From an uncultured archaeon (GTDB lineage: Archaea; Asgardarchaeota; Jordiarchaeia; Jordiarchaeales; Jordiarchaeaceae): a stretch of 21,714 bases of DNA. This document shows positions 904 to 21,615 of the stretch, one piece after another. Position 1 is the stretch's first letter. The number at the start of each line of letters is the position of its first letter. The position numbers and the translations under genes were made by a program. Where the stretch lies: positions 1 to 21,714 of the forward strand of contig CAZECW010000029.1 in the NCBI GenBank assembly GCA_964510585.1, given 5' to 3'. The notes beneath the pieces are model-generated. The model saw only the letters and a list, made by a program, of their open reading frames with translations, was not told where the DNA came from and made no database searches.

Positions 904-935
904 AAACCCAACACCTCCAATTATTAAATGATTGC

Positions 936-2972: not shown

Positions 2973-3036
2973 ACCCAGAAAAGTAAAACACATCGTACCA
3001 CTGGAAATCTAAAGCTTTGTCTTATTCTTTCCTTTT

Positions 3037-3591: not shown

Positions 3592-3612
3592 AAACTAGTT
3601 AAAATAGCCAAA

Positions 3613-3628
3613 TTATATTAAATTTTAC
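3613..3628 (-). promoter_or_regulatory. TATA/BRE of a probably leaderless HD-hydrolase transcript
   Basis: The minus strand reads GTAAAATTTAATATAA, ending 21 nt before the ATG at 3591. No RBS lies in between. Confidence 0.5.
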
Positions 3629-3720
3629 CCTCATACGGACACAAAAACAGGCAAAATTGATTTAAAAAAGAAACAATTATGTTATCCTTTCTCTTTTCTG
3701 CTGCTGTTTACCTGTTTCTT

Positions 3721-4266
3721 CTATTTTTTGTGTTGCTCTCTGTCTGCAAGGGTAAACCCAATCTCTAAGGCTCGAGTGTTTATGTTGGGATGTTTTACTG
3801 TTTCCCTCACGGCTTTAAGTATGGTTTCTTTCTTGATTATTCCTGTTATTGCCACCAAGAAGCCTAGTAATATCATGTTGGAGTAGAGGTTGCTTCCTAG
3901 CTCTTTTTCTGCCAGCTCTGAGGCTGGCACCGGGTAAATTTTCACGTCTTCAAATGGCCAACTCCTCACCAAAGTAGAATCTACTATTACTATTTTGTTC
4001 TTCTTTATTGCGCCTCCCTGCTTGTCTACTGCTTCTTGAGAGGTGAAAACGTATATATCGGCATCTATAGCTCCTGGATAATCAATTTCTTCATCAGATA
4101 TTACTACTTCGGTCCAAAGATCTCCGCCCCTCACTTTTGCCCCGTAGGACGTAACTTGCGTTGCAATTTCTCCCTCATATATGGTGGCTGCCCTAGCCAA
4201 TAGTTCTCCCATAGTTATGACTCCTTGACCTCCGGAGCCAACGATGCGAATTTCAGTTCTCACCAT
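3721..4266 (-). CDS. korC: 2-oxoacid:ferredoxin oxidoreductase gamma subunit
   Basis: IRIVGSGGQGVIT, SYGAKVRGG, VVISDEEIDYP, NMILLGFL and NTRALEIGF motifs. The start overlaps the beta-subunit 3' end. Confidence 0.93.
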   Translation of the reverse strand: MVRTEIRIVGSGGQGVITMGELLARAATIYEGEIATQVTSYGAKVRGGDLWTEVVISDEEIDYPGAIDADIYVFTSQEAVDKQGGAIKKNKIVIVDSTLVRSWPFEDVKIYPVPASELAEKELGSNLYSNMILLGFLVAITGIIKKETILKAVRETVKHPNINTRALEIGFTLADREQHKK

Positions 4267-5086
4267 TTTCTGTCCACCTTATTTTAGTATATTGTTCCGA
4301 TAATTCGGGAGCGGTCTTCTCAACAAACTCACCCACCACTATTTTTTGGCTAAGCTCCTCTGCTGAGAGCCTTTTAGCCTCTTCTTTGCCCACCATGATT
4401 CCTTGAAGCCATTTTACCAAGTCAACTGGGTGCCTTACTTTAATGAGGGGGCCGTAACGTACGGGGCACGGTGAAAGCACTTCAATGAATGAGAATCCCT
4501 TCCTCTGAAGAGCCTTCTTAATGGATCTGATGAGTTGTCTCACATGCAGAGTTGACCATCTTGCCACATACGTTCCACCCGCCGCCTCCACGAGTTTACA
4601 CAAATCAAAGGGGTTTTCTAGGTTGCCATAAGGCGTGGTATCAGTTCTCAAACCATGGGGAGTTGTTGGAGCCACCTGTGCCCCTGTCATTCCATAAATA
4701 AAGTTGTTTACACAGATAACTGAGAGTCCAATGTTCCTTCGGGCTCCATGAATGAGGTGATTGCCCCCAATGGCTGACAGGTCTCCGTCCCCCGAGATAA
4801 CAACCACGTTCAGTTCGGGGTTTGCCAGTTTTAAACCAGTGGCAAAAGCTATGGGCCGTCCATGCGTCGTGTGAAGCACATCCGTGTTAAATAGGGGACT
4901 GGGTATCCAACCCGCACAGCCTATCCCGGAAACGAAGGCCACTTTTGTGAAGTCGAGGCCCAACTCGTCTATTGCTCTAAGAATACACTGGGCAATGACT
5001 CCGTCACCACAGCCTGGGCAATGGGGGAGAGGTAGTGTTTCTGGCCTAATGTACTTCATTAATGGATGCACGGATTTTCCACTCAT
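4253..5086 (-). CDS. korB: 2-oxoacid:ferredoxin oxidoreductase beta (TPP-binding) subunit
   Basis: CPGCG, SGIGC, HTTHGRPIAFATG, GDGD...NN TPP motif, YGMTGAQVAPTT and EVLSPCP. ATGA overlap with the alpha stop, preceded by an AGGAGG RBS. Confidence 0.94.
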   Translation of the reverse strand: MSGKSVHPLMKYIRPETLPLPHCPGCGDGVIAQCILRAIDELGLDFTKVAFVSGIGCAGWIPSPLFNTDVLHTTHGRPIAFATGLKLANPELNVVVISGDGDLSAIGGNHLIHGARRNIGLSVICVNNFIYGMTGAQVAPTTPHGLRTDTTPYGNLENPFDLCKLVEAAGGTYVARWSTLHVRQLIRSIKKALQRKGFSFIEVLSPCPVRYGPLIKVRHPVDLVKWLQGIMVGKEEAKRLSAEELSQKIVVGEFVEKTAPELSEQYTKIRWTENGEN

Positions 5087-6246
5087 GAGGACGCCTCCTT
5101 TCTTATGGTTTCCAAAACATATTTGGGGTTATGTATGGCTCCCAGAATCTGGGGAGGCAGAAACCCAACCTCTGCCACTCCACAGGCTGCACTTCTCACA
5201 TAATCCAGAATTTGCCCCATATTATTCTCCAAAACTATGATTTTATCCACCTGCTCCGCTATTTTCGCAATTTCCCGCCGAGCAAAAGGCCAAATGGTAA
5301 CAAGTCTAACACATCCCACCCTAATCCCCTCCATTCTTGCTTTTTTCAACGCCCATAGTGTGGATCTAAAGGGGCTACCGTATGTCACCAAGACAATTTT
5401 GGCATCATCAACTTGAATCTTTTGCAATCTTACAATTTCATTCCGGTGTTTCTCAAACTTTCCATAAATTCTCTTAATCAAATGGTCCAAGTCCTTTGGG
5501 TCACTGACTTTCCGGTATCCCAACTCATCGTGACAAGAGCCGGTAACATGAACCCGGAATCCAGATCCAAACGCAGGCATGGGAGCCACATCCTCACTTA
5601 GGAAAAAAGAGATTTCACCCTTTAAAGCGGGCTTTTTTCTATTTATTATTGGGATGTCCCAACTTGGCCTAATGACAACGCTCTCCCTCATGAAACTAAC
5701 ATAGGCATCAGTCAAAAGGATTACTGGGGTTCTTAAAGCCTCAGATAAATTAAACGCCTCCACGGTAAAATCAAACATGTCTTGGGGTGAGGATGGTGCA
5801 AGAACCAATATGGGATACTCTCCATGGGCACCATGCCTAGATTGCATCACATCCCCCTGCAAGGGCACCCCCACCTGTCCAACGCCGGGTCCTCCTCGCT
5901 GAACATCCACTATCACACAGGGGGTTTCGGTCTGAACAGCGTAGCCTATTCCCTCCTGCATTAGGCTGAAGCCGGGGCCGCTGGTCGCCGTCATAGATTT
6001 TAGACCCGCCCAAGAGGCTCCTATGATTGATGATATTGATGCTATCTCGTCCTCCATCTGTATGCTGATTCCCCCCACTTTGGGCATCTTTAAAGCCATA
6101 ACCTGACCTATCTCTCTTGCGGGAGTAATGGGATAAAATGCGAAGAACCTGCAGCCCGCAGCTAATGCTCCCTCTGCACAAGCCACATTTCCTTCCAAGA
6201 AATCTACACGTTTACCTAATTCACTGGACAGAAATATTCCTCCCAA
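5083..6246 (-). CDS. korA: 2-oxoacid:ferredoxin oxidoreductase alpha subunit
   Basis: GNVACAEGA, YPITP, QMEDEIAS, TATSGPGFSLMQE, DVQRGGP and ENNMGQI motifs. The start is uncertain: TTG 6246, or CTG 6231 downstream of a GGAGGA RBS. Confidence 0.94.
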   Translation of the reverse strand: MGGIFLSSELGKRVDFLEGNVACAEGALAAGCRFFAFYPITPAREIGQVMALKMPKVGGISIQMEDEIASISSIIGASWAGLKSMTATSGPGFSLMQEGIGYAVQTETPCVIVDVQRGGPGVGQVGVPLQGDVMQSRHGAHGEYPILVLAPSSPQDMFDFTVEAFNLSEALRTPVILLTDAYVSFMRESVVIRPSWDIPIINRKKPALKGEISFFLSEDVAPMPAFGSGFRVHVTGSCHDELGYRKVSDPKDLDHLIKRIYGKFEKHRNEIVRLQKIQVDDAKIVLVTYGSPFRSTLWALKKARMEGIRVGCVRLVTIWPFARREIAKIAEQVDKIIVLENNMGQILDYVRSAACGVAEVGFLPPQILGAIHNPKYVLETIRKEASS

Positions 6247-6463
6247 AATGTTGGATGTATTCTACCTGATTCTGTATGGTTTCTTTAACTTTTAAAGTTG
6301 TGACACCAAACTATTCCAGTTAACACAGACAATATCAGGGGATGGTGGGAAGGCGTATTTTATAAATCAGTCCCTTTTTTTAGTTGCTGGAACCCTTTTT
6401 GGCAATAATATTAAAATATTTCTTGTCCCTATCGGTTACCATACTTTTAATGGAGATGGGTGC

Positions 6464-6676
6464 TTGCAAAAGGCGAATATAATTGTTGACCCCTCAAAAT
6501 GTCGAATGTGCTTGCAGTGCCAGATTTTCTGCTCCCTCCTGCACGAGGGAGAGGCGAACCCCTCAAAGGCTAACCTAAAAATCGAGAAAGGCGCTATTAC
6601 TTTCCTTGAGACCTGCAGGGAAAACTGCAGTTTCTGTGCTGACTACTGTGCCTACCAAGCATTAAAACCCAAGTAA
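6464..6676 (+). CDS. Short 4Fe-4S dicluster ferredoxin associated with the AOR
   Basis: CRMCLQCQIFC and CRENCSFCADYC give 8 Cys. TTG start after GGAGATG; ends 23 nt before the AOR gene. Confidence 0.88.
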   Translation: MQKANIIVDPSKCRMCLQCQIFCSLLHEGEANPSKANLKIEKGAITFLETCRENCSFCADYCAYQALKPK

Positions 6677-6699
6677 TAATTTTTGGAGTCTGAAGAATA

Positions 6700-8598
6700 A
6701 TGGAGTATTATGGTTATGCGGGTGCGGTTCTAGACTTGAACCTAACCACCGGAGAAAAGGAAGTTATCCCCCTAGAGGCCGATTGGATTAACGACTATAT
6801 TGGAGGAGCGGGTTTAAGCTTTAAACTTTTCAGCCAGTACCAAAAACCCAAGGTGGACCCCCTATCTGAGGATAACGTTATTGTTCTTGGTGTGGGCCCA
6901 ATAGTGGGCACCGGGGCACCTTTAGGTTCCAAGGTTTTTGCAGTGACAAAATTTGCAATACCTGCTTCTGAGGATGGGAAACACTACGTAACCACCGCTA
7001 TTGGGGGCTTCAAAAGGTTCGGACTCATGATGAAGAGGGCGGGATTCGACCACCTCATCATTAGAGGTAAATCCCAAAAACCAGTTTATCTCCACATTAA
7101 AGATGAGGAAATAGAAGTCAAGGACGCCTCCCCCCTTAAAAGCTGCGATACCTATCAAACCACCGAAAAACTCCTCTCCCTATACCCCAGCTCGGGTGTG
7201 ATTGCTAATGGTCCTGCTGGCGAAAATCTGGTTAGACTCTCACTGACCATAGTTGATGGTTTGGGAACCTTGGGTCGAGGAGGCTTAGGTGCGGTTCTGG
7301 GTTCCAAAAACATTAAAGCAATTGTCGCTCAGGGCACTGGGGGAATAAAGGTAGCCCGGCAGAAGGAGCTATTCAAAAAGGCCAAGGAAATAGTAAGCCT
7401 CATAAAATCCCAGGACATTTTCAAAACCGCTCAAGATATGGGAGCCCACGTCTTCTGGGAGATGATTTACCTCAAGAACATGTCCTCTGGAATTTGGACT
7501 AAGGATAAGTTCAACGAACTCTACGGGATGGTTCCATTCACAAAATCCAGACTGATTTCCGAGGCCTGTGTATCCTGTCCCATAGGCTGCAAGACTCAAC
7601 ACCGAGTCTATGAAGGCCCATTGACCGGCACCGAAGTGAAGACCACCCACTTCATAAACACTGCTAATCTGGGCCAAAAACTGGAATTGGAGGATTACCG
7701 TGAAGCCCTCAAGCTGGTTGACGCATGTAACAGAGCAGGCGTGTGCTTGTACACCTTCTCAGAAATGGCGGACTACATATCTCGGCTTCTCAAAGAGGGC
7801 AAAATAACCAACGAAGACCTTTTCGGCTTCACTCTTGAAAGAAACTCGGATAGCTATTTAGAATTCCTAGAAAAAATAAAAAATAGGGAAGGCATCGGAG
7901 CTATAGCCGCCGACGGTTGGTTTGCTCTCTCCCAACATCTAGAGTACGACGCTCTCATCCACTATAAGCATAGTCGAGGAATAGTTAAGGGAACCGACTG
8001 CATATTTGACGCCCGATTCAATAGGTTGGACTCCTCCATGGTTTCCCAAGTGGTGAATCCCAAGGGAGGTTTCCAAGCTTGGGGCAACTTCGGCGGCAGA
8101 CTAACCACCCAGGACGTTCCAGAATTATACAACACACCCGAAAAAGAAAATCTAGGAAGATTGACTGCCCAATCAGAGGATTGCATGATGGTTCTAAACT
8201 CCATAGGTGCCTGCTACGTGATTGTTAACACCCTCTCAATGTTTGGATACCCCATACTCAAAACACTCGCAGAGGTATATGGTTATATAACAGGAATAGA
8301 CGTTGAGCCTAGGGAATTAAAATTGAAGGGTGAACGTTGCTTCAACCTCTACAAAATGTTGAATGTGCGGGAGGGCTTCAACAGAAGCGATGACCGCTTT
8401 CCCAAGGTGTGGCTCGAACCCAAAGAAACACCCGAAAGAACCCTAACCCTCAAAACCCTCTACGCTAAGAAAGATGTAGACGAGCAAATGCTGGAACAAA
8501 TACTCGACGAGTATTACCGTGAGAGGGGCTGGGATCTAAAGAAGGGGATCCCCACCCCCGAAAAGTTAACTTCCCTGAAACTAGATTACCTAAAATAA
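6700..8598 (+). CDS. aor: Tungsten/molybdopterin aldehyde:ferredoxin oxidoreductase (AOR) family protein with an atypical active site
   Basis: YIGGAGL, MKRAGFDHLIIRGKSQKPVYL, GPAGEN, GRGGLGAVLGSKNIKAI, CVSCPIGC (C290/C293/C297) plus the fourth FeS Cys in NSIGAC (C505), ERxFN and DEYYRERGWD..GIPT. Confidence 0.93.
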   Translation: MEYYGYAGAVLDLNLTTGEKEVIPLEADWINDYIGGAGLSFKLFSQYQKPKVDPLSEDNVIVLGVGPIVGTGAPLGSKVFAVTKFAIPASEDGKHYVTTAIGGFKRFGLMMKRAGFDHLIIRGKSQKPVYLHIKDEEIEVKDASPLKSCDTYQTTEKLLSLYPSSGVIANGPAGENLVRLSLTIVDGLGTLGRGGLGAVLGSKNIKAIVAQGTGGIKVARQKELFKKAKEIVSLIKSQDIFKTAQDMGAHVFWEMIYLKNMSSGIWTKDKFNELYGMVPFTKSRLISEACVSCPIGCKTQHRVYEGPLTGTEVKTTHFINTANLGQKLELEDYREALKLVDACNRAGVCLYTFSEMADYISRLLKEGKITNEDLFGFTLERNSDSYLEFLEKIKNREGIGAIAADGWFALSQHLEYDALIHYKHSRGIVKGTDCIFDARFNRLDSSMVSQVVNPKGGFQAWGNFGGRLTTQDVPELYNTPEKENLGRLTAQSEDCMMVLNSIGACYVIVNTLSMFGYPILKTLAEVYGYITGIDVEPRELKLKGERCFNLYKMLNVREGFNRSDDRFPKVWLEPKETPERTLTLKTLYAKKDVDEQMLEQILDEYYRERGWDLKKGIPTPEKLTSLKLDYLK

Positions 8599-8688
8599 AA
8601 TTAGGCGATGAGAAGAAAAATTTGAGGTAAAATTGAATTTATCAAGGCAAAGTTCTCATTAACTAATCTTTTGTTGAAATTTGGGCGT

Positions 8689-10155
8689 CTACTCTTCTTC
8701 CTCTTCTATACCGCAGATTCTCTTAGCGTCTCGGACCCTTGATTGTAAGGGTTCTCCCTTAGAGGCATAGTACATGGTTATTTTACAAGCCTGCCCGGAA
8801 CCACCGCCATGTGCTGCTGAGTGGCAGAGGGCTCCAGCACCATAGGTTAGATTTTCTATTAGTCTCACAATTCTTGCCCTGTGTTCTGCTGGGGTTTCAT
8901 TCGCTCCCGCGTAAAATCTTGCGAGGTAGTGGGCTATTTCTGGATTTTTGAATTCTTTTTCGCTTGGTAGGGTTGCTATGATTCCTCCAGTGATGTCTTC
9001 TGCGAGCCTTATAATTTCATATACTGCTTTTGAAGCCACGTACTTGGTATTGTTTGCAAGGATTATGTCCGGTATCATTCCTGCTCCCTCGTAGTAGGTT
9101 GCTTTAACACATGATGCTATAGCGCAAGAATACATTGTTTCATTATAACTTATCATGTCGGTTATTTTTTCTCTAACGTGGGAAACGTTTGCTGTGCCGT
9201 TTAATTCTGCGTAGGCTTGAACCGCCCCTATGAGTACGTCTGTCCAGCCGGTTTTGCAGCCGCCTGTTGTTGGCCTGTGACACGCACCCAGAAGGTTCAC
9301 AAGCATTCCTGTAAATTCCACCTCACCACACATAAACACTCTTTCCCAGGGAACAAAAACGTCATCAAATATCACAACTGTTTCGTGGAAACCATATTTT
9401 GGATTGCCAATGTCCCATTCTGAGTCTTCCCTTCTGCGGTCGTCCTGAGAATAGCGGGCAGATATATTTTTTATTCCCTTTGCGTTGCCCGGAACCGCAC
9501 AGCAAACAGCATAGTCCTCTGATCCAGGGTAATGGGTAGTGGAGGGTGCTACAAACTTTTCATGGGAGCACACGGATCCTGTCTGACAGAGTTTTGCGCC
9601 CCGCAGAACTATGCCGTCTTTGTCCTTTTCCACAACCCTTAGGTACATATCAGGGTCGCCCTGTTCATGGGCTTTAAGTAAACGGTCGCCCTTAGGATCA
9701 GTCATTGCTGGACAGCCGATCAAATCGTTTTTCTGGAAGTACTTTATGTATTCCACTGCGTTTTTATAGTAGTGGGTTCCTTTGGCCTCATCAATCTTTT
9801 TGGTTGTCGCAAGCAGAGCGGGAAAGGCGTTGTGGACGCAGCGGAAGGAACACATTCCAATTCTACGGTTAGCATATCTTGTTATGTCCACCTTTCTTAT
9901 GAGATCCTCCACGGTTTGGGCAACGTGAGTCCAGCGGCTGATGGTTTCTCCTGTAAAGTGGGATTTGGTGAGGAGAAAATTCTTTAGTTTTTCCTCATGT
10001 TGCATATCGTAGGTTTTGGCAATAGCGTTAATCATGGGTTTAACTTTGGGATGGTTGACAACGGATTTGCCAGAAATTTTGCCACCATCAATGTACAATT
10101 CAAAATTCATATCAATCATATCTTGGATATACTCCTCACCAGTCTTCAAATACAA
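8689..10155 (-). CDS. 4-hydroxybutyryl-CoA dehydratase / 4-hydroxyphenylacetate 3-hydroxylase family FAD/[4Fe-4S] protein (AbfD-like)
   Basis: AMTDPKGDR, GIVLRGAK, FDDVFVPWERVF and EDITGG motifs, with the AbfD-type FeS ligands CxxxC (C102/C106), H293 and C300. TTG start after a GAAGGTGA RBS. Confidence 0.9.
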   Translation of the reverse strand: MYLKTGEEYIQDMIDMNFELYIDGGKISGKSVVNHPKVKPMINAIAKTYDMQHEEKLKNFLLTKSHFTGETISRWTHVAQTVEDLIRKVDITRYANRRIGMCSFRCVHNAFPALLATTKKIDEAKGTHYYKNAVEYIKYFQKNDLIGCPAMTDPKGDRLLKAHEQGDPDMYLRVVEKDKDGIVLRGAKLCQTGSVCSHEKFVAPSTTHYPGSEDYAVCCAVPGNAKGIKNISARYSQDDRRREDSEWDIGNPKYGFHETVVIFDDVFVPWERVFMCGEVEFTGMLVNLLGACHRPTTGGCKTGWTDVLIGAVQAYAELNGTANVSHVREKITDMISYNETMYSCAIASCVKATYYEGAGMIPDIILANNTKYVASKAVYEIIRLAEDITGGIIATLPSEKEFKNPEIAHYLARFYAGANETPAEHRARIVRLIENLTYGAGALCHSAAHGGGSGQACKITMYYASKGEPLQSRVRDAKRICGIEEEEE

Positions 10156-10255
10156 TTCTACTTCACCTTCTTACTTTCACAATTTCGTTTTCCAAACCAA
10201 AATGAAGACATTAATACACTAGAAAAGTAGCCTTTTTAATATTTTTCGACAAACC

Positions 10256-10275
10256 AAATCGTAAAAACACGATTT
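10256..10275. promoter_or_regulatory. Perfect 7-6-7 palindrome AAATCGT-N6-ACGATTT, candidate operator
   Basis: Read directly from the sequence, in the intergenic region between the divergent AbfD-like and PaaK-like genes. Confidence 0.4.
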
Positions 10276-10528
10276 TATCACCTTCTAAGCACAAAAATTT
10301 CCCCTATCACCATTCAAATGCCTTGAATATTTCCCCCGCTTGTGTTTTAAGGTTTTCCAAAATATGAGTGGAAGGGAGTACCCCTCTCTAAGGAAAACGA
10401 TAAATAATAAGCCAGAAAACTTGGTAAATATTAAAAACTAGTTCTACGCATAATAAGTCTTAATTGAACGTTTTAAAATTAATAAATTTGGTTATCTGTA
10501 AAAAATGTAATTTTTGGAGGGAAACTTT

Positions 10529-11947
10529 TTGTCTGAGTTAATGGAAGAGATTAAGGCCCTAGTCGCGGGACACATTAAGGGCTCCCCACACCTAAGCGGA
10601 GCCAAGTACTATAATGAACCAGTTGAAAGAATGCCACGGCCAAAAATAGAAGAGCTGCAGTGGAAATTGTTAAAACTCCAAATAAAAAGAGCCTATGAGC
10701 TCACTCCATTCTATCACAAAAGGCTCAAGGAAGTGGGAATCAAGCCTGAAGACATTAAAACCCTAAAAGACTTCCAAAAAATTCCGCCTGTGCTAAAAGA
10801 CGACATTCGAGAGCAAATGAAGAAAACCGGCGACCCCTTCGGAGGATGCCTAGCGGTGCCCTTTCTACCATCCAAAATACTCAATGTATATTCCTCCACG
10901 GGAACCACCGGACTGAGAACATTCAACGTTCACACAGATTGGGACAGAAATTGGTGCCTGGAGGAAATCTGCAGATTAGGAGTCATGGAGATGCACGACG
11001 CGCCGCCCGGATCTGTTTTCATAGACTTCGGTTTCCACTGGCATGGAGGAATCACTGGGGTTGAGCTGGGAGTCTCAAGATTGGGGTTAATTGTGGCGCC
11101 TATGGAGGCTTTGGGACCTGGATTCGAACTAGAAAGATGTTTACAGGCACTTCAATTTCTGAAACCCATAAGTATCCATTGGCCACTGGTAACTTTGTGG
11201 ATTTTTGGAGACTGGCTACAATCAATAAATAAGGATCCCAAAGAAGCCATGAAGCATGTAAAACTACTATCTACCTCAGGTGACGTTTTGACCACCGCAG
11301 CCGCAGAATTTGTTAAGGAATACTGGGGTTTTGAACGCGTACATTCCGGTTTTCAGATGGCTGACACCTGGATAACTGGGTGCAATTGTTCTGAGCAACC
11401 CCCAAACATCACTCACATCTGTGACGACTTCCACTATGTGGAAGCTGTGGATCCTGAAACCGGTGAGCAGGTAGCACCGGGCGAGCGGGGTATACTGGTA
11501 ATCACTCCACTGGTTATGGAGGCCATTCCGCATCTGAGGTGGAATAATGAAGACTACGTTTCGCTGATTCAGGATGAGTGTGAATGTGGTCGCACCCACA
11601 CCCGTCTACACTGGTACGGGAGGGAGGCTTTTGCTGTAGATGTTAGGGGTAGGAAGGTGTTTCCCAGCGAAGTTGAAACAGAGCTATTCGAGTACCCAGA
11701 AATAGGAGTTAACGCCATCGCCTCGCAATTCGTTAAAACCGCTGAAGGCTCCCAGGACAAGTTGATTATAAGAGTGACCTATTTCCCAGATAAGACAAAA
11801 GATCCTCAGAAGTTGAAGGAAAGTGCCGAGAAAAAAATAAAACAAAAACTGGGACTTGACGTAGAAATCGAATTTATGAGTCAAGATGAAATGAAAGCCG
11901 CCCTAACAGCACCACACAAGACATCTAGGCTAATAAAACGGTATTAA
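10529..11947 (+). CDS. Phenylacetate-CoA ligase / coenzyme F390 synthetase (PaaK-like) adenylate-forming enzyme
   Basis: PFYHKRLKEVGI.PEDIKTL.D..KIP...KDD, P-loop SSTGTTG, HYVEAVDPETGEQV.PGE.G.LVIT, CECGRTH.RL and KVFPSEVE. TTG 10529 lies 7 nt after GGAGGG; the ORF track starts at 10514. Confidence 0.88.
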   Translation: MSELMEEIKALVAGHIKGSPHLSGAKYYNEPVERMPRPKIEELQWKLLKLQIKRAYELTPFYHKRLKEVGIKPEDIKTLKDFQKIPPVLKDDIREQMKKTGDPFGGCLAVPFLPSKILNVYSSTGTTGLRTFNVHTDWDRNWCLEEICRLGVMEMHDAPPGSVFIDFGFHWHGGITGVELGVSRLGLIVAPMEALGPGFELERCLQALQFLKPISIHWPLVTLWIFGDWLQSINKDPKEAMKHVKLLSTSGDVLTTAAAEFVKEYWGFERVHSGFQMADTWITGCNCSEQPPNITHICDDFHYVEAVDPETGEQVAPGERGILVITPLVMEAIPHLRWNNEDYVSLIQDECECGRTHTRLHWYGREAFAVDVRGRKVFPSEVETELFEYPEIGVNAIASQFVKTAEGSQDKLIIRVTYFPDKTKDPQKLKESAEKKIKQKLGLDVEIEFMSQDEMKAALTAPHKTSRLIKRY

Positions 11948-12169
11948 ACATCAATCCATCCCACATTTTTTTATTTCTTCCAATCACAATTAATAATTAT
12001 TTAATATTTTATTACTCACCAGTAGTTTATCAAAAAAGTAAATTCAAGTAATGTTTGGATTAAAAGACGCAGACCTTTTTCTAAATTTATTAGTATGGAT
12101 TTTGTAGCTCTTTAATTGATGTGATGGTTTAAAGTGCAATCATAAAGGATTTGTTTGGAGGTGTGTTTG

Positions 12170-13726
12170 TTGGAGAAGTATCCTTGGTGGACTGAGTATC
12201 AGAAAAAATTGGCTGATGAGGTTGAAGCTTTTGCCCTTCAGATTGCTCCCAGAGCTCTGGAGCTGGTCTGGAAGAGAGAACATCCTGCAGATTTAGTTAA
12301 AATGGTTGGAGAAAGGGGATGGTTTGGAGTACTAGTACCTGAAGAGTACGGAGGAATGGGAAAAAACGGTGGAGTGACTTCCAGTGCGATCATAACTGAG
12401 GGATTAACCAGCGTAGGGATGCTGGGAGGACTGTTTTTCTCCACCCAGTTTGGAGGTGTAAAACAGCTATCAACGTTTGGTACGCCTGAGCAGAAGGAGC
12501 GCTGGCTGACTAGGGTGGCTCGAGGCGAAGTGATAGGCGCGTTAGGACTCACAGAACCCTTTGTGGGGAGCGACGCTGCAGGGATCAAAACCACCGCGGT
12601 TAAGGATGGGGACGAATGGGTGATTAATGGCAAAAAGAGATTTATAACAAATACTGGGGTTGCAAACCTATACTTTGTTTATGCAAGAACTAGCAACGAT
12701 CCGAAAGATATTCAGGGCAGGAGGCATCTAACTGCCTTTGTTGTGGAACGGGGAACCCCAGGGTTTAGTGTGGAGAGAATAAATGAATTGGCGGTGTTTG
12801 ACGCTGTGCGTAACGGTACCCTTAACTTTAACAATGTGCGCGTTCCTGAAGAAAACATAGTTGGAGGAGTGGGTGGCGGTTGGAATGTTATGACTTCTGG
12901 TCTCAATTTTGAGAGGCTAATGATTGCAGTTTGTATGGTTTCCGCGATGAGGGAAGCTCTTAGGAACGCTTTATATTTCACTGAGAGGAGGGTGCAGTTC
13001 GGTCAGAGAACAATTGATTTTGAGAGTAACCAGTATAAAATTGCGGACATGATTATGAGGCTCAAATCCACAAGACTACTTTGCTATTATACTGCATACC
13101 AGGAGGACTTGGGTAACAACCCCATAATAGAGGCAAACGCAGCCAAAATTATGGCTACAGAATTGGCGAGAGAGTCTGCAATAGACGCTCTACAGGTCTG
13201 CGGGGGCGACAGCTTCACCAAATACTATACAGTGGAGCAACTGTTGAGAGATACCAAAATAAATGAGGTGGGGGGTGGCACCAACGAGGTTCTGAGGCGT
13301 CTCATAGTCTACATATATCGGAGACTATTCTCAGCTGAGATACCACAGCCTAGAAGACGCATACACAAAGAGCTGAGAATTCCTATTCCCTATTTTGAGT
13401 CTCCTGGTAGAAAAGCCCCCACAAGTCAAGCCACCACTCCTGAAGCTATGGAGAAATTGGTTCTTGAGGCTTTGAGTGAGGACTACTTTGTAAATCCTGG
13501 GCTTCACATGAAGCGTGAAGAACTAATGGACGATACCGGTTTGAGCGAGGAGCAGTTAGACGAAACCCTTCTCTCCTTGGAAGAGAAAGGGCTGGTTGAT
13601 CTTTGGCGTGATAGGCACGGAGTCATCAGGTTGGCTAAGGCCACCTACGAGGGGCTTAACAAGGCAAAACCCTTAGATTTCTACCGCTGGTATCCTCCAT
13701 GGAGCAGAGAAGAAGAGAGATTCTAA
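12170..13726 (+). CDS. Acyl-CoA dehydrogenase (IVD/LCAD-type catalytic Glu) with a C-terminal winged-helix-like extension
   Basis: VPEEYGG, ALGLTEPFVGSDAAGIKT, WVINGKKRFITN, F.NVRVPEENIVG, R.QFGQ..I..FE..QYKIADM, QVCGG and GGGTNEV, followed by about 130 extra residues. TTG 12170 follows a GGAGGTG RBS; the ORF track starts at 12155. Confidence 0.93.
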   Translation: MEKYPWWTEYQKKLADEVEAFALQIAPRALELVWKREHPADLVKMVGERGWFGVLVPEEYGGMGKNGGVTSSAIITEGLTSVGMLGGLFFSTQFGGVKQLSTFGTPEQKERWLTRVARGEVIGALGLTEPFVGSDAAGIKTTAVKDGDEWVINGKKRFITNTGVANLYFVYARTSNDPKDIQGRRHLTAFVVERGTPGFSVERINELAVFDAVRNGTLNFNNVRVPEENIVGGVGGGWNVMTSGLNFERLMIAVCMVSAMREALRNALYFTERRVQFGQRTIDFESNQYKIADMIMRLKSTRLLCYYTAYQEDLGNNPIIEANAAKIMATELARESAIDALQVCGGDSFTKYYTVEQLLRDTKINEVGGGTNEVLRRLIVYIYRRLFSAEIPQPRRRIHKELRIPIPYFESPGRKAPTSQATTPEAMEKLVLEALSEDYFVNPGLHMKREELMDDTGLSEEQLDETLLSLEEKGLVDLWRDRHGVIRLAKATYEGLNKAKPLDFYRWYPPWSREEERF

Positions 13727-15265: not shown

Positions 15266-15691
15266 TTGGATGAACTATTCACTTATCCTGAAAAAATTTA
15301 TGGAATATTTGTCGCAGTCCCGAGGAGGCCCAGATTTCCGCAAGTAAAGTACCTTTTTGTTTTCACAAACCACAGAATAATATTATTCCGGGGACTCGAA
15401 ATACTAAAAAACCCACCACCAGAAATCAACCCCCATTCCCGATACATCGACTGGAAACACGTGAGTAAAGTGGTGGAAAACATTAAGGGAAGTTACCAAA
15501 TCCCCCTATACGAGATTAAGGAGATAACAGTTAACACCTACTGGCGAAGAATAACCATTTACGGCTACCTTATGATAATAGAAACCTATGAGGGAAAAAA
15601 GCACAAATGGAACCTACGCTTCGAATACCTTGAAGCAATGAAAAACCTCGCCAAGGAACTGGGCATCCCCCTAAACATTATACGAAAATAA
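15266..15691 (+). CDS. Hypothetical protein, possible PH-like (bPH/GRAM) fold
   Basis: 141-aa ORF with LFVFTNHRIILF, IPLYEIKEITV, LMIIETYEG and a C-terminal amphipathic helix. TTTATAAA lies about 35 nt upstream. Confidence 0.7.
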   Translation: MDELFTYPEKIYGIFVAVPRRPRFPQVKYLFVFTNHRIILFRGLEILKNPPPEINPHSRYIDWKHVSKVVENIKGSYQIPLYEIKEITVNTYWRRITIYGYLMIIETYEGKKHKWNLRFEYLEAMKNLAKELGIPLNIIRK

Positions 15692-16494: not shown

Positions 16495-17172
16495 TTAGAA
16501 GAGCACTACTATTCGGCCTTTGCAACTGGGATTGGCGAAATCGTCTATGAAGTAGTCGCAACCTCCTTTTAGTTTCTGTCCAATATCAGAACTCATAATT
16601 CGCCCTAAAGCACAGATCTGTCTGCCGTCCATTTTCTTGATTTTTTCTGAAATAAACGCTTCGCAGCAATCTCTAAAAGGGCAATCATCAACAACGTAAT
16701 TAACAGTGCTATCATCCTCTAACTTGTAACTAACTTTGGTGGGCATCAGTCCAAAAAACACCAGTTTATCAACTGATTTCTTCCAGGCTTCTTTAAGGTT
16801 AGTGGCTTCCCCAGTCTTCCCTGATTCCAAATTTTTCGCCACTTCTGTTGTTGAAATCCTCTGCGAACTCCCTGTGGCGCCTTGGAGCATTGATTCCGTC
16901 CTTCCCATACTGTATATGAGGGCATTGTAGATGTGAGGGTACCTGTTAAGGTTTTTTTGCAAATATTCCTTTACCTGTGTCCAATCCCATTCTTGGGCGT
17001 CTTCAACCGGCGATTCTCCGCATTTCTTTGCTGCAAAAAGTATAGTGTTTTTTTTAGCTAAACGTCCATATGCCGGTCCGTATACCTTCTCTTGATTTTG
17101 TAGTATTGCGATGCAGACATCTATAAGTGCATTGGCGTTGACTTGGTCATATTGTGTTTGTATCTTTTCCAA
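16495..17172 (-). CDS. Hypothetical protein with a C-terminal V4R/MetOD1-like Cys-rich domain
   Basis: Helical N-terminus, then YVVDDCPFRDCC...ICALG...GCDY...SCKGRI, a CPF/C/C pattern typical of V4R-like ligand-binding domains. TTG 17172 follows GAGGTG; the ORF track starts at GTG 17181. Confidence 0.7.
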   Translation of the reverse strand: MEKIQTQYDQVNANALIDVCIAILQNQEKVYGPAYGRLAKKNTILFAAKKCGESPVEDAQEWDWTQVKEYLQKNLNRYPHIYNALIYSMGRTESMLQGATGSSQRISTTEVAKNLESGKTGEATNLKEAWKKSVDKLVFFGLMPTKVSYKLEDDSTVNYVVDDCPFRDCCEAFISEKIKKMDGRQICALGRIMSSDIGQKLKGGCDYFIDDFANPSCKGRIVVLF

Positions 17173-17602
17173 TATTTCCACCTCAATTTGAAAAATTTTT
17201 GCTAATGGTATGTTATAATTACGATTTGCTCAAAATAAATCTTTTCAACTTCATCTTTAACGTCGAGATTTGGTAAAAACTTTTTATTTTCCCTATCTTT
17301 CTTGCGAAAATTATAAGAGAAGACCAAAAATTTTGCATTTATCTAAAAGTTTAATAAAGAGAAATAGTAACTATTTACTCAAGTGAGGCTTCGCGATTAG
17401 AACCAACAATATACCCTGTTTATGGATATGCGGTAAAAAGATGCGGTTCCACAGATCAAAGTGAAAATGTTTTCCCTACAATGGGAATTTGCCAAATTCT
17501 GGCATTCATCGCGTCCTTGCGTTCCTTCAAAAATTGATTTATAGAAGTGTTAGGGATGAACTAAATTGGAATTGTATGAATTGACGGGAAAGCGGTTAGA
17601 GT

Positions 17603-18169
17603 ATGGCTGCTCTGACACACCTAGAACCTAGCCCACACGTATGCCTTGGCGGTGACAATTATGTTCCCCCTTTAAAAATTCACTTATGTCCCCCCTACTC
17701 AAAATACGATTTTTATTATAGTTTCAGTGACGGTTTAGATTTATGGCTAAAATCCGCCAGAATAAAGTGCAATGGTGATAATCATAAATTTTTGCTCTAC
17801 CCAGAGGACTTTACAGAGGGAAGAATGGTGGCAGTAATATGGAACTACCTACCTGAAGAGGGATACATTCGGGCAACCATAAATGTCAGAGACGGGCTAC
17901 TCCTACATCAGCAGAGCCATAACAGTCCGAAAGGGCTGGGAACCGTAGCCTTATTGATATGCACTGAGGACACGATACTTGAAGGCCGCCAATATCAGAG
18001 CTTCTCTTGCTCCCAAAAGAAGTCTCCAAAAATAGAAAAGTTCACTATTGCCTTTGGCTATGATGGATTTCCAGACTTGGAACCCATCAGGCTAAAATCA
18101 TTACCCCACCTAGAATATACACACAGAAAGGAACCTAATAGAAAAAGAGTAAAAATTGGGCAATTCTAG
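17603..18169 (+). CDS. Hypothetical protein (188 aa, beta-rich)
   Basis: A long ORF with no competing ORF of 60 aa or more on the opposite strand in the track. Its stop overlaps the convergent gene's stop (CTAG). The start is uncertain. Confidence 0.6.
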   Translation: MAALTHLEPSPHVCLGGDNYVPPLKIHLCPPYSKYDFYYSFSDGLDLWLKSARIKCNGDNHKFLLYPEDFTEGRMVAVIWNYLPEEGYIRATINVRDGLLLHQQSHNSPKGLGTVALLICTEDTILEGRQYQSFSCSQKKSPKIEKFTIAFGYDGFPDLEPIRLKSLPHLEYTHRKEPNRKRVKIGQF

Positions 18170-19245
18170 GTATACTTCTTGGCTAGATCTTTCAAAATTG
18201 CTTCTGCTTCCTGCATTATGCTATCAATGACTTCCTTGCATGTCATAAGTTTGTGTATTCTGAGAGAAACTTGACCCGCCCATATGGCTCCATCCTCAAT
18301 GTTTCCCTCAGGTCCCTTCGCCCTATATGTGCCCTCAGATTCAAAAGCCCAAACATCCTGCATGGTAATCTCTTCATTCTTCAACATCTGAGTCAGCTCA
18401 TACAATCTCAGAGAATATCTGTTCTTCAAGTGTCGTAATGGACCGTAAACGCCCTGAGTAACTATGGTTGTAGCCTCTTTGGGATACTTATTTGAAGAGT
18501 CTATTATGGCCTGTTTGACCTTATCGTTAAACTCACACTCCTTAGTCACAATGAATCTTGTGCCCATATAGATTCCCTGGGCCCCAAATGCTAACATGGC
18601 TACAAGACCCTTTCCGTCGCATACTCCACCTCCACCCACAACTGGTACTTTTACTTGTTGTACGACTTCAGGTACCACTACAAATGTGTGGTATGGCTCG
18701 TAGGCCACATGTCCTCCAGCCTCGTAGCCGGTTACTATGAGCCCATCTACCCCTGATTTTTCCGCCTTCTTAGCGTGATATACGCTAGGTACTGTTTGGA
18801 ACCTGAGCATTCCTGCTTCCTGTATTTTTTTAAGGTGTGGCTGCGTAGGGTCCCCCGCAGAGCAGAGAACCATTTTGAGCTTTTTCTGAAGGTTGGGATC
18901 TTTTTCACGTTCCTCAATTAGGGCGTCTAGCAGCATTGGTACGTCGGGCTGTTCGGGGGCTACTCGGAAGTTTACCCCAAAGCTGCCTTTGGCCTTTCTG
19001 CCCACTTCTCTCACGGCGCCCATCATTCTGTTTTTAACATCGTTGAAGGCTTTAATTCTAGTTTCCTCATCTGCTATTATCGCTAGAATACCGTATTCTG
19101 GTGCTGGGGCAGGATGGCTCACCATTCCAAATCCTCCAGCCGTGGCCACCGCTGCCGCAAGTTCCTTAGTGTCAAATGGTCCCATTGCAGCTTGTATGAT
19201 TGGGTACTCAATTTCCAACATGTCACAAATTTTTGTTCTAATCAT
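18166..19245 (-). CDS. Nitronate monooxygenase / FabK-type enoyl-thioester reductase family FMN protein
   Basis: KICDMLEIEYPIIQAAM, LAAAVATAGGFG, SFGVN, AKKAEKSGVDGLIVTGYEAGGH, PVVGGGGVCDGKG, GAQGIYMGTRFI and WAGQ. Confidence 0.92.
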   Translation of the reverse strand: MIRTKICDMLEIEYPIIQAAMGPFDTKELAAAVATAGGFGMVSHPAPAPEYGILAIIADEETRIKAFNDVKNRMMGAVREVGRKAKGSFGVNFRVAPEQPDVPMLLDALIEEREKDPNLQKKLKMVLCSAGDPTQPHLKKIQEAGMLRFQTVPSVYHAKKAEKSGVDGLIVTGYEAGGHVAYEPYHTFVVVPEVVQQVKVPVVGGGGVCDGKGLVAMLAFGAQGIYMGTRFIVTKECEFNDKVKQAIIDSSNKYPKEATTIVTQGVYGPLRHLKNRYSLRLYELTQMLKNEEITMQDVWAFESEGTYRAKGPEGNIEDGAIWAGQVSLRIHKLMTCKEVIDSIMQEAEAILKDLAKKYT

Positions 19246-19300
19246 ATTAAAACCCCTTTTGAAAACTCAGAAGTGTGATGTCCAAATTTTTCCAACATAT

Positions 19301-19310
19301 ATTAAGTTTT
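19301..19310 (-). promoter_or_regulatory. BRE-TATA-like element AAAACTTAAT for the FabK/NMO-like gene
   Basis: The identical 10-mer occurs in sense orientation upstream of both divergent genes (here and at 19678-19687). Confidence 0.45.
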
Positions 19311-19432
19311 GTTTTAACAAATTTAATTAATTTATTAAATTTTGCGCCAAACCTATTGGGCAAGGATGGGTAAAAACACCTTTTACATCATTTTTTAGGA
19401 CTTATTGGCTTTTACTTTTTAGTGTCTTTTAG

Positions 19433-19580
19433 TAGACCTTAGGCGTAATTGGTACTTCCGGAATTTTTTCCGTTTTCATTCGTCTTTTATCACGTTTTTG
19501 CATTTTTCGGTAGGGTTTCTGAAAGATTTTAAACTTTTTCGCACCATTTCTGAATGAAAAATAATTACACCTAAGGTCTA
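19433..19580. mobile_element. MITE-like element: 148 bp bounded by 18-bp inverted repeats (17/18 identical)
   Basis: Left TAGACCTTAGGCGTAATT (19433-19450); right AATTACACCTAAGGTCTA (19563-19580). The outer TA may be a target-site duplication. The interior is non-coding and T-rich. Confidence 0.5.
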
Positions 19581-19677
19581 GTAAGTTTCTGGTTTGAAGG
19601 AGAAAAGTGGTCTTATTTTGGTTTCATCGTTTGTATGGTGCATCGAAAACACTAAGGTGCCATAGTTTATTGTCGCA

Positions 19678-19687
19678 AAAACTTAAT
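19678..19687 (+). promoter_or_regulatory. BRE-TATA-like element AAAACTTAAT for mtrH
   Basis: Lies 43 nt upstream of ATG 19731, with a GGTGGTGG RBS in between. Confidence 0.45.
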
Positions 19688-19730
19688 TAGTTAGAGAACT
19701 CAATCTATTCTGAGTCTAGGTGGTGGTAGA

Positions 19731-20651
19731 ATGCTTATCTTTGAACGTGAACAGAAGATTTTTACAATAGGGAATGTTAAAATTGGTGGCCAGCCTGGAG
19801 AGCTGCCCACAGTTTTGGTGGGTTCAATATTCTACGATAGGCACAAGATAGTCAGCGACCCAATCAATGGAGTTTTTGACAAAAGTAAGGCGGAGGAGCT
19901 AATAAAAAGGCAGGAAGAAATGTCTGATAAAACCGGGAATCCCCACATGGTTGACATAGTAGCCTCAAGCCAAACTGCAATTGTGAAATACATAGAATTC
20001 GTTGCAGGAATCACAGACGCCCCCTTTTTCATTGACAGCACAGCCACCGACGTAAAAATTTCGGGACTAAAATACTCTGCTGAGACGGGACTACTAGACA
20101 GAGCAGTCTACAATTCTATAACATTCCATGTCTCCGACCAAGAGATAATGGATCTCAAAAACATTGGTGTAAAATCTGCGGTTCTACTCGGCTACAATCC
20201 CCGAAACGTGAAGCCCCAAGGCCGAGTTGAACTCTTAAAAGGAGACCAGAACACAAAGGGCTTAATAAAATACGCTGAGGAAGCGGGGATCCAAAACATG
20301 CTGGTTGATACGGCTGTTCTAGATGTTCCCAGTATTGGCATGGCAGCAGAGGCTGTTAAACTAGTGAAGCAGGAATTCGGATTACCATGTGGTGGAGGAC
20401 CCTTAAACGCAGTTCTCGAATGGAAGAGAGTAACCGAACTTGGGGAGAACGCCAAAAAAGTGTGCGCCGCAACTGCAGTAACAGCCATGATACACGCCGG
20501 AGCAAACTGGGTACTATACGGACCAATATACAATTCGGATGTAGTTTTCCCAGCGGTAGCAATGGTTGATTCCACTATAGCCTACACGAAATCTAGGATG
20601 CGCCAAATAACTATACAAACCAAGAATCACCCGCTCTATAAAATATTCTAA
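19731..20651 (+). CDS. mtrH: Stand-alone tetrahydromethanopterin S-methyltransferase subunit H (MtrH/MtgA-like corrinoid:pterin methyltransferase)
   Basis: FEREQKIFTIGNVKIGGQPGELPTVLVGSIFY, TGNPHMVDI, PFFIDST, YNSI, LVDTAVLDVPSIG, GLPCGGG..N, GANWVLYGPI and AVAMVDS. Confidence 0.93.
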   Translation: MLIFEREQKIFTIGNVKIGGQPGELPTVLVGSIFYDRHKIVSDPINGVFDKSKAEELIKRQEEMSDKTGNPHMVDIVASSQTAIVKYIEFVAGITDAPFFIDSTATDVKISGLKYSAETGLLDRAVYNSITFHVSDQEIMDLKNIGVKSAVLLGYNPRNVKPQGRVELLKGDQNTKGLIKYAEEAGIQNMLVDTAVLDVPSIGMAAEAVKLVKQEFGLPCGGGPLNAVLEWKRVTELGENAKKVCAATAVTAMIHAGANWVLYGPIYNSDVVFPAVAMVDSTIAYTKSRMRQITIQTKNHPLYKIF

Positions 20652-20724: not shown

Positions 20725-21615
20725 CTAGATTTCCATCATTTTATATACTGGTATGCTACCAACATTTGTCAGGCTGAGTCCTCCGTCCACGATGATTACT
20801 TGACCCGTTATATAGCTTGCCTCTGGCGAAGCCAGGAATGCTGCGACCGCTGCGATGTCTTCTGGTTTACCAAGCCTTTTAGCAGGTATGTCCTTGTAGA
20901 GTTCCGGGGCAACTGTATCTATCATTTGTATCATTGGCGTGTATATCAATCCAGGCGCTATGGCGTTCACAGTAATTCCTTTATGCGCCACCTCTAATGC
21001 CAACGATTTTGTGAAACCCACTATTGCGGCTTTCGCTGCACTATAACTTGTCACTAGTGCGTCCCCCGTGATTCCCGATACTGAGGAAACATTAATAATT
21101 CTCCCACCTTCCTTCATATTCTTGAGGACAGCCTTTGAGAATAAGAATGTGCCCTCAACGTGTACTTGAAACATGGTGCGCCACTTTTCCAATGTTATGT
21201 CTGAAATTTTACCTAGATCAAATATTCCAGCATCATTAACTAGGATATCAACACTTCCAAGATTCTTTATGGTTTCCTCAATTGCTTTATCTACTTGATT
21301 CTCGTCTCTCACATCACATTGAAGCGCTATAGCCTTACCCCCAAGGTCGTTAATTTCTTTTACCACATTCTTGGCATGTCCAATGTTTACGTCAACTATA
21401 GAAACTTTGGCTCCTTCCAATGCAAAGCGGTGAGCAATACCACGACCAATACCCGAAGCACCACCAGTAATAAGCGCAACCTTACCCAATAATCGTCCCT
21501 TAACACCCATAACCTCCAAAGACTCAGCTGTTTCCTTAACGGTAACCCCACCAACTATTACTTTTTTAATCATATCCCTAAGTGATTCCGTACCTTCCTG
21601 TTTCTCTACACTCAT
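20725..21615 (-). CDS. Short-chain dehydrogenase/reductase (FabG-like, probably NAD-preferring) with a ~40-aa N-terminal extension
   Basis: TGGASGIG, acidic IVDVN, DILVNDAG, NVSS, YSAAK, VNAIAPG and YITGQVIIVDGG. ATG 21615 follows GGAGGG. Confidence 0.93.
   Translation of the reverse strand: MSVEKQEGTESLRDMIKKVIVGGVTVKETAESLEVMGVKGRLLGKVALITGGASGIGRGIAHRFALEGAKVSIVDVNIGHAKNVVKEINDLGGKAIALQCDVRDENQVDKAIEETIKNLGSVDILVNDAGIFDLGKISDITLEKWRTMFQVHVEGTFLFSKAVLKNMKEGGRIINVSSVSGITGDALVTSYSAAKAAIVGFTKSLALEVAHKGITVNAIAPGLIYTPMIQMIDTVAPELYKDIPAKRLGKPEDIAAVAAFLASPEASYITGQVIIVDGGLSLTNVGSIPVYKMMEI

Follow-up and report, generated by a model that had tools for sequence, protein, structure and literature searches.

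Acyl-CoA dehydrogenases (ACADs) are among the best-studied flavoenzymes, yet the conserved module described here, which is carried by one of their clades, has neither a Pfam family nor a solved structure. ACADs of the isovaleryl-CoA dehydrogenase (IVD) and long-chain acyl-CoA dehydrogenase (LCAD) type (PDB entries 1ivh and 4kto) have a three-domain fold, a glutamate on helix G within the motif GLxxER, and a glycine at the site that holds the catalytic glutamate in medium-chain acyl-CoA dehydrogenase (MCAD). AidB, ACDH-11, and Bd2924 carry a short, all-helical fourth domain at the C terminus together with a glutamate at the MCAD position, and they have no measurable dehydrogenase activity (PMC6851490). 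The C-terminal domain of VLCAD, the acyl-CoA dehydrogenase for very long chains, serves in membrane targeting (PMC9237092). Here, we analyzed a window of 21,714 nucleotides (nt), positions 1 to 21,714 of contig CAZECW010000029.1 from an uncultured Asgard archaeon, in which one gene encodes P0001, an ACAD of 518 amino acids (aa) with a C-terminal tail of 135 aa. Full-text literature searches found no paper describing a fusion of an ACAD with a winged helix; P0001 belongs to an ACAD clade whose winged helix, a probable accessory domain or subunit, has not been described before. We put the probability at about 60% that the tail is a dedicated module that docks on the ACAD core and acts in a protein-protein mode, not a DNA-binding regulator.

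P0001 resembles the IVD/LCAD-type enzymes in its three-domain fold and in both active site positions. It differs from them in that it reaches no NCBIfam equivalog cutoff (the best, AcrC, gave 255 bits versus 640) and in that its tail is absent from all solved ACADs. Like AidB, ACDH-11, and Bd2924, it has an ACAD scaffold extended at the C terminus by an extra domain, but the extra domain of P0001 is a predicted winged helix, and the core that bears it has its IVD-type active site intact. The AidB/IVD model PRK11561 scored 18.7 bits on P0001 against a cutoff of 545, and the AidB model matched only core residues 117 to 376 (E, 4e-4), so that the tail is not homologous to AidB domain IV. VLCAD and ACAD9 offer a parallel for an extension, about 180 aa in their case, that changes the assembly or location of an ACAD core. 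Their domain, however, is helical, membrane-binding, and unrelated in sequence, and the alignments cover core residues 45 to 379 only.

The core of P0001 matched Pfam families PF02771, PF02770, and PF00441 in that order, with E values of 2e-23, 3e-22, and 1e-38 and scores of 83.1, 79.1, and 133.1 bits against gathering cutoffs of 22.9, 33.3, and 22.4, which places it in the ACAD superfamily. A sequence-only reading of the window had put the end of the core near position 13300, and the core indeed closes with GGGTNEVLRRLI (aa 368 to 379, positions 13271 to 13306), where the Pfam coverage of aa 8 to 379 ends as well. That reading had also proposed the IVD/LCAD arrangement, with a glutamate in GLNFERL at position 12911 and a glycine at the MCAD site. 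Alignment with PDB entry 5lnx agreed, being reciprocal, with a glycine opposite E248 and YEGT opposite G370, and the Glu248/Gly370 arrangement was common to 8 of the 8 tailed paralogs in the genome. E248 was likewise present in all of the aligned ACADs that carry the tail or belong to the split form described below. Invariant across 40 homologs were T128, E129, P130, G133, D135, Q276, F277, G345, and G346, and R274 was nearly so. The motifs TEPxxGSD and RxxFG and the GG of the helix I-J region were looked for in the core and found; we assume for their residues the cofactor and substrate roles familiar from MCAD. The closest solved structures to the core are 5lnx and 5ol2 (Bcd). Judged by its sequence, P0001 is a working-type acyl-CoA dehydrogenase, with its putative catalytic glutamate on helix G as in isovaleryl-CoA dehydrogenase.

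The tail begins with the linker that the sequence-only reading had recognized as Pro/Arg-rich, at aa 387 to 410, in which P405 is invariant and P394, R396, H399, and L402 are nearly invariant among the 40 homologs. AlphaFold2 was run with the 40-sequence alignment on the full-length protein and on the tail alone. The full-length model had a predicted local distance difference test score (pLDDT) of 89.6 and a predicted template modeling score (pTM) of 0.85, the 135-aa tail by itself had a pLDDT of 84, and values lay at about 87 to 97 over aa 424 to 500. The modeled elements are H1 (aa 424 to 441), S1 (447 to 448), H2 (449 to 456), H3 (460 to 472), S2 (476 to 480), and S3 (486 to 491). At the C-terminal end (pLDDT, 82 to 95), G495, L496, and P509 are invariant and Y493, Y505, W507, W511, and F518 nearly so; other invariant tail residues are Y439, L467, L470, E471, L488, and A491. 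In an exhaustive structure search with VIA-align, residues 422 to 504 had the winged-helix fold. The best match was 2obp (Z, 11.3; 81 residues, 24% identity), followed by a Z of 9.6; 36 chains had a Z of at least 8, and winged helices of MarR (about 9), Rio2, ScpA, and Hel308 fell at a Z of 8 to 9.6, with ScpA/Scc1 at 8.0 to 8.6. The models and the match to 2obp uphold the C-terminal winged-helix-like domain proposed earlier from the sequence. Of the AlphaFold-Foldseek check proposed with it, the first half gave a confident winged helix-turn-helix (wHTH) model, but Foldseek against the PDB returned no match to the tail at an E of ≤1e-3, and for this reason the fold assignment rests on the VIA-align search. 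Against Pfam wHTH families the tail fell below all cutoffs (HTH_Crp_2, 18 to 19 bits versus 27; TrmB, 12.8 versus 25.6), and its matches to wHTH families of NCBIfam were all subthreshold. A profile search of PDB sequences gave 2xvc as the best match to the tail (E, 0.0055), and an Atlas feature search returned generic small winged-helix clusters only. By its modeled structure, the tail is a winged-helix domain in fold.

A survey of how the fusion is distributed, another check suggested by the sequence-only reading, found the tail only with one ACAD clade, either fused or as an adjacent split gene. A query with the tail alone retrieved 154 proteins, nearly all of them 506 to 538 aa long and with ACAD domains. 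Tailed enzymes occur in Freyarchaeota/Jordarchaeia, Lokiarchaeia, Bathyarchaeia, ANME-1, Desulfobacterales, Dehalococcoidia, and Syntrophorhabdaceae, and the clade is widespread in anaerobic Archaea and Bacteria. When 1.84 billion representatives were searched with a hidden Markov model, the tail was found only at ACAD C termini. Short matches that looked freestanding (P0122 and similar) were contig-edge fragments, with a frame open to base 1 that reads the end of an ACAD; other matches of odd length were ACAD fragments, and the marginal ones (TIR, GntR, DUF4476, PolB) were unrelated proteins. Among sampled Asgard genomes the tail was present in 48 of 201, and in 28 of the 86 of high quality; all five other sampled genomes of the window's genus had it, with 4 to 10 matches each. 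Mean column identity across Archaea and Bacteria was 54% in the tail and 59% in the core, which makes the tail as conserved as the core. Among the eight tailed paralogs of the window's genome the values were 51% and 55%, respectively, which indicates that both parts diverge there at the same rate. That genome encodes 16 ACADs, 8 tailed and 8 tailless. In trees built from the core only, the tailed ACADs formed one clade (support, 0.89). In three distant homologs the gene neighborhood of the fused form was not conserved, and no gene for an electron transfer flavoprotein (ETF) was adjacent there. One tailed paralog, at about 8520 to 10173 of contig C38 (L025, 711 to 2361), is frameshifted and is either a pseudogene or an assembly error: its N-terminal third lies in frame +3 (711 to 1256, ending in ...RATRVRGVYN*), and the rest, including the tail, lies in frame +1 (1168 to 2361). 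A tailless ACAD homolog of the same genome (C202, 25232 to 26386) is without both catalytic glutamates, reading LDRTRL on helix G and NAQGT at the MCAD site.

The survey of the Asgard phylum also returned small open frames that matched only the winged-helix part of the profile. The six standalone homologs that we fetched are about 90 to 105 aa long, share the signature LLAKEFEYTQGLH...SLExQGLVNLY...KIKLAKITWRGLNE, and are 37 to 42% identical to the tail in the window, with E values down to 1.6e-12. At all nine loci examined, the standalone homolog lies 1 to 12 nt upstream of, or overlaps, an ACAD gene on the same strand. The partner ACADs of the six fetched loci are 410 to 449 aa long and carry GLNIERL, and within the window's genome they match the tailed paralogs best. 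Their last residues, ...LPR, align to P394-R395, the start of the PRRRIH hairpin of the fused form. The three more distant loci, from Thor-, Hod-, and Lokiarchaeia, have the same order of winged helix, ACAD, enoyl-CoA hydratase, and SCP2, with a gene for an AMP-binding acyl-CoA ligase added in two of them (L038 and L039). In L038 the winged-helix gene spans 3001 to 3276 and the ACAD gene 3289 to 4524. In the Hodarchaeales locus, L039, the ACAD may be broken, being called as two open reading frames (ORFs; 157 and 197 aa). The 62 members of the standalone family come so far only from Asgard archaea, with no Pfam domain and the annotation "hypothetical protein." A tblastn search did not find the gene in the window's own genome, an assembly that is 96% complete; two genomes of the same genus do have it. 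Fused and split-form ACADs together formed one clade (support, 0.999), the split clade being sister to the fused one. The modules are fused in some genomes and encoded by adjacent genes in others, within one enzyme clade, as the Rosetta stone principle describes, and this pattern is a classical signature of parts that work together physically.

For complex prediction, the core (residues 1 to 380) and the tail were supplied as two chains, each with its own alignment, in three runs. The interaction prediction score from aligned errors (ipSAE) was 0.62 (0.67, 0.61, and 0.62 in the individual runs), versus 0.00 for the best control; in calibration, 58 of 80 solved complexes attained the mark set on this score, as did 2 of 110 mismatched pairs. 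Contacts agreed between runs to at least 89%, and partner pLDDT was at least 82. PDB sequence and structure comparisons found no solved structure that contains the tail, and the result is therefore not the recall of a known complex. In the complex model, the linker hairpin (399 to 410) lies on helix A (26 to 35) and residue 352, and the VNPGL loop (441 to 448), together with Y479 and L488, is set against the loop that joins helices G and H (270 to 275, and 280). The contacts of lowest error join core residues 273 to 275 with tail residues 442 to 448, 479, and 488, and those of VNPGL to core residues 270 to 275 have an expected error of about 2 Å. The predicted interface uses the most conserved residues of the tail, namely hairpin 399 to 410, VNPGL 441 to 448, Y479, and L488. 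On the core side, residues were compared in 7 fused, 6 split, and 8 tailless enzymes. At residue 273, fused and split forms have R or K where tailless ACADs have Q, E, L, or M, and position 347 separates the same groups (Table 1). Conservation of W34, R265, Y269, and F352 is limited to the fused forms, and the listed contact pairs set W34 and F352 against the hairpin, which only fused forms possess.

R274, next to these contacts, is presumably the MCAD arginine that binds the flavin adenine dinucleotide (FAD) of the partner subunit, and we take R274-G278 and G345-G346 to be the loops that, in MCAD structures, bind the FAD of the partner subunit. If this mapping is right, the modeled docking site would adjoin the loops that hold FAD between subunits. 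Such a position also suits an explanation in which the basic wing and the RRR of the linker touch the phosphates of the partner FAD, or of the 3'-phospho-ADP of acyl-CoA, and tighten binding as a lid would. The conserved basic residues at 395 to 397, 480, 482 to 483, and 490 are consistent with this, but the split form is without the RRR hairpin, and the complex model is ligand-free and so shows no geometry relative to FAD or CoA; we think a lid very improbable.

The reading that we favor is a docked accessory module in three parts, of which the first is a basic β-hairpin linker, the second a winged helix of acidic character, and the third the aromatic C-terminal end. The linker hairpin would run along helix A of the core, and the VNPGL loop and the base of the wing would sit on the helix G/H loop (R273-V275) near D347, beside the segments that would hold the partner subunit's FAD in ACAD dimers. 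The module would thus be a built-in subunit that buttresses the flavin-binding, intersubunit face, in our preferred view as a clamp on flavin and dimer face, and the conserved acidic H3 and basic wing tip would stay exposed and may offer a surface for docking. Two genes would make up this partnership in some Asgard archaea, with a winged-helix protein of 90 to 96 aa encoded directly upstream of an ACAD of the sister clade. Computation gave the fold, the conservation, the charge, the clade restriction, and the split form, as well as a docking prediction run with controls; docking presumably occurs in the cell as well, and its effect would be to stabilize FAD or the oligomer, or to receive a partner. 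Winged helices that bind proteins are known from CdvB (ESCRT-III; 2xvc), from the C-terminal domains of ScpA and Scc1, and from the wHTH of BamF, and these resemble the tail in offering a winged helix as a protein-protein interface. They differ in their partners, which are unrelated; the similarity is weak and generic, and we claim no homology. A docked subunit would correct database names that call the tail an ArsR or PadR regulator, would give about 60 unannotated Asgard "hypothetical proteins" of 90 to 96 aa a probable role as ACAD partners, and would point to a structural feature beside the presumed intersubunit flavin site.

Several points weigh against a docked module. The docking is a prediction from our own alignments, and a pass is favored by the fact that core and tail, run as two chains, are the halves of a single polypeptide; the tail may, moreover, dock in cis or in trans. 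Shared ancestry could account in part for the clade-specific interface residues, which were compared in small samples. Neither the acidic H3, nor the basic wing tip, nor the invariant aromatic C terminus, which is absent from the list of predicted cis contacts, is accounted for by the cis interface, which leaves the account of the function incomplete. The best structural neighbors are mostly DNA-binding proteins, and the small gene of the split form comes first in its operon, a position also typical of autoregulators.

The last two points bear on the proposal in the sequence-only reading of a trigger enzyme in the manner of PutA. PutA, the classic trigger enzyme, has an N-terminal ribbon-helix-helix domain with demonstrated operator binding. 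P0001 is like it in concept only, in that both join a flavoenzyme to a domain whose fold is a DNA-binding one, and differs in that its domain is C-terminal, acidic, and predicted to dock on the enzyme, with no operator candidate found upstream. On this explanation, the winged helix would bind DNA, perhaps mainly via the wing, and the acyl-CoA or FAD redox state would modulate binding, giving PutA- or AidB-like regulation of its own or neighboring genes. The fold itself and the presence of MarR-type regulators among the best structural matches speak for this, as do weak, subthreshold matches to HTH_Crp_2, TrmB, TFE, and Rrf2, the ArsR and PadR names in databases, the place of the small split-form gene at the head of a β-oxidation-like operon, and a weak 9-nt inverted repeat at positions 12107 to 12137 upstream of the gene. 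AidB is a precedent for a DNA-binding ACAD homolog (PMC6851490, section 2.6 and its references). The MarR-type regulators PcaV (4fht) and ST1710 (3gfi) and the 81-aa protein 2obp have the same winged-helix topology, but the tail is without the MarR dimerization helices and below the Pfam cutoffs, and its H3 is acidic rather than basic or polar.

The charge of the domain sets it apart from DNA-binding regulators, of which a basic or polar recognition helix and a nonnegative domain charge are expected. The tail has neither. D or E stands at positions 460, 461, and 464 of H3 in 82 to 88% of sequences, E471 is invariant, and no basic residue is conserved; the net charge of H3 is −1 to −6 in 40 of 40 family members (mean, −3.4). 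The winged-helix domain has a mean net charge of −4.5 across the 40 members and −9 in the copy in the window. Within the genome, the eight ACAD tails average −5.1, versus means of +2.9 to +3.7 for bona fide TrmB, MarR, and HTH_5 domains, only 3 of 32 of which are negative (minimum, −3). Genome-wide searches with PF01978 (TrmB), PF01047 (MarR), and PF01022 (HTH_5) matched none of the eight tails. H3 is nearly identical across these eight paralogs, but no k-mer of 8 to 10 nt was shared upstream of them above random genomic expectation (a weak test, limited to exact words), and the intergenic stretches at 10156 to 10528 and 11948 to 12169 hold weak AT-rich inverted repeats only. It is on the surface predicted to face the enzyme, and not on H3, that conservation is strongest, the neighborhoods of distant homologs are not conserved, and every occurrence of the domain in the searches made was with this ACAD clade. 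The genome does have canonical regulators next to ACAD genes, since on contig C91 an ordinary MarR/ArsR-type wHTH gene (2427 to 2546) lies just upstream of a tailless ACAD gene (3582 to 4832). The wing, with a net charge of +2 to +5 in 40 of 40 members and conserved as basic, may still allow DNA binding. On the charge of H3 and of the domain, the missing upstream motif, the enzyme-facing conservation, and the clade restriction, the trigger enzyme is not supported, and we consider it improbable. The acidity of the recognition helix, in contrast, which the sequence-only reading had itself remarked on as compatible with protein interaction, proved to be conserved throughout the family and points to that role.

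What the exposed surface of a docked module might do leads to a further alternative, in which the main task of the docked winged helix is to expose H3, which is acidic, and the basic wing to an outside partner in electron transfer, the single EtfAB or another acceptor, and so to wire many paralogs to one partner. H3, which lies outside the predicted interface, the wing tip, and the aromatic C terminus would then have a reason for their conservation, and a near-identical H3 in eight paralogs is what one common partner would lead us to expect. For its 16 ACADs the genome has only one EtfAB pair, whose genes lie beside that of a tailless MCAD-type ACAD. The family is confined to anaerobes, in which the disposal of ACAD electrons is the hard step, and the wHTH motif of BamF is reported to be a protein interface in an electron-bifurcating complex (bioRxiv 10.64898/2026.04.10.717634). 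However, no partner gene is conserved beside the tailed ACADs, and the explanation draws on unexplained conservation, not on a positive signal; we hold it to be unlikely. A place for the tail at the ETF recognition-loop site on helix A was also considered, but was given up because its residue mapping would need coordinates. Should the exposed surface recruit a redox partner, this would be relevant to the way in which the acyl-CoA/enoyl-CoA couple, which is energetically difficult, is dealt with in Asgard archaea and syntrophic bacteria. A broader proposal, which we offer as a tentative possibility, sees in the winged helix an ACAD subunit of a new kind, whose exposed acidic helix, basic wing, and aromatic C terminus form a docking site for ETF or another acceptor, and in the clade a distinct, adaptor-bearing ACAD system. 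Were this so, we would learn by what means strict anaerobes, among them Asgard archaea with as many as 10 paralogs in one genome, connect the oxidation of acyl-CoA or the reduction of enoyl-CoA to their redox chains. The stretch from 18679 to 21994 of contig C150, which holds the EtfAB genes, is a classical Bcd-Etf-like cluster.

Table 1. Positions of the ACAD gene, its parts, and other loci mentioned in the text (window coordinates unless a contig of the window's genome, G000, or another locus, L, is named)
Feature	Position	Strand	Remarks
P0001 gene	12170-13726	+	518-aa ACAD with winged-helix tail; open ORF; stop codon 13724-13726
Shine-Dalgarno-like GGAGGTG	12157-12163	+	6 nt 5' of TTG start 12170
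ACAD catalytic core, aa 8-379	12191-13306	+	N-terminal helical, middle β, and C-terminal helical domains
E248 in GLNFERL, helix G	12911-12913	+	Putative catalytic base at IVD/LCAD position; invariant in 40 homologs
R273-R274-V275, loop between helices G and H	12986-12994	+	Predicted winged-helix contact; R274 conserved in every ACAD aligned
D347	13208-13210	+	On predicted interface; fused and split forms all have Asp, tailless ACADs have Y/F/R/I
G370	13277-13279	+	MCAD-type catalytic Glu site; YEGT replaced by GGGT
Conserved basic linker, aa 387-410	13328-13399	+	Consensus ELKMPRRRIHxxLGVPxP; β-hairpin 395-398 + 405-408 in both models
Variable spacer, aa 411-423	13400-13438	+	Mostly gaps in homologs; pLDDT ~55
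Winged-helix domain, aa 424-492	13439-13645	+	H1, S1, H2, H3, S2, wing, S3 (modeled; pLDDT ~90-97)
V441-N-P-G-L445 loop between H1 and S1	13490-13504	+	Invariant, 40/40; center of predicted docking surface
H3, aa 460-472, EEQLDETLLSLEE	13547-13585	+	Would-be recognition helix; conserved acidic; outside predicted cis interface
Wing, aa 476-491	13595-13642	+	Conserved basic R480, K/R482, K/R483, K490; Y/W479 and L488 toward core
C-terminal helix pair and aromatic end, aa 493-518	13646-13723	+	Consensus TYEGLxKAxPLEYYxWFPxWxxKExIF
CoA transferase	1-903	−	Window flank
Methylmalonyl-CoA mutase large subunit	1329-2972		Window flank
HD-domain protein	3037-3591	−	Window flank
2-Oxoacid:ferredoxin oxidoreductase gamma, beta, alpha subunits	3721-6246	−	Window flank
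Aldehyde:ferredoxin oxidoreductase	6700-8598		Window flank
HpaB/4-hydroxybutyryl-CoA-dehydratase-family protein	8689-10155	−	Window flank
PaaK-like adenylate-forming ligase	10514-11947		Directly upstream of ACAD gene
NMO-family flavoprotein	18166-19245	−	Neighbor of MtrH homolog
MtrH-family methyltransferase homolog	19731-20651	+	PF02007, E 3e-96; host is a nonmethanogen
Short-chain dehydrogenase/reductase (SDR)	20725-21615	−	Neighbor of MtrH homolog
EtfAB, the genome's single pair	G000:C150:20502-21994	−	Beside, and divergent from, tailless MCAD-type ACAD 18679-19836 (+)
Asgard operon: winged helix (90-96 aa)-ACAD-enoyl-CoA hydratase-SCP2	L038 3001-6276; L039 3001-6273; L040 1781-5071

The TTG at position 12170 is a likelier start than the TTG at 12155, because of the spacing of GGAGGTG and because homologs begin with MExFPWW, the N-terminal consensus of the family in the homolog alignment, which a start at 12170 fits. 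Motifs like GGAGG or GAGGTG also precede the starts of several other tailed paralogs whose upstream sequences were compared. The database proteins closest to P0001 are named Candidatus Freyarchaeota, with P0002 96% identical over the tail, and a genome of the same genus encodes a protein named Candidatus Freyarchaeum deiterrae. Upstream of the ACAD gene, the flank from 1 to 11947 holds many genes of CoA and 2-oxoacid metabolism. Downstream, the ORFs at 15266 to 15691 (+, 141 aa), 16495 to 17181 (−, 228 aa), and 17603 to 18169 (+, 188 aa) had no Pfam match. The NMO-family gene that follows them has a homolog upstream of the split winged-helix-ACAD pair in a genome of the same genus (L032, 2642 to 3631).

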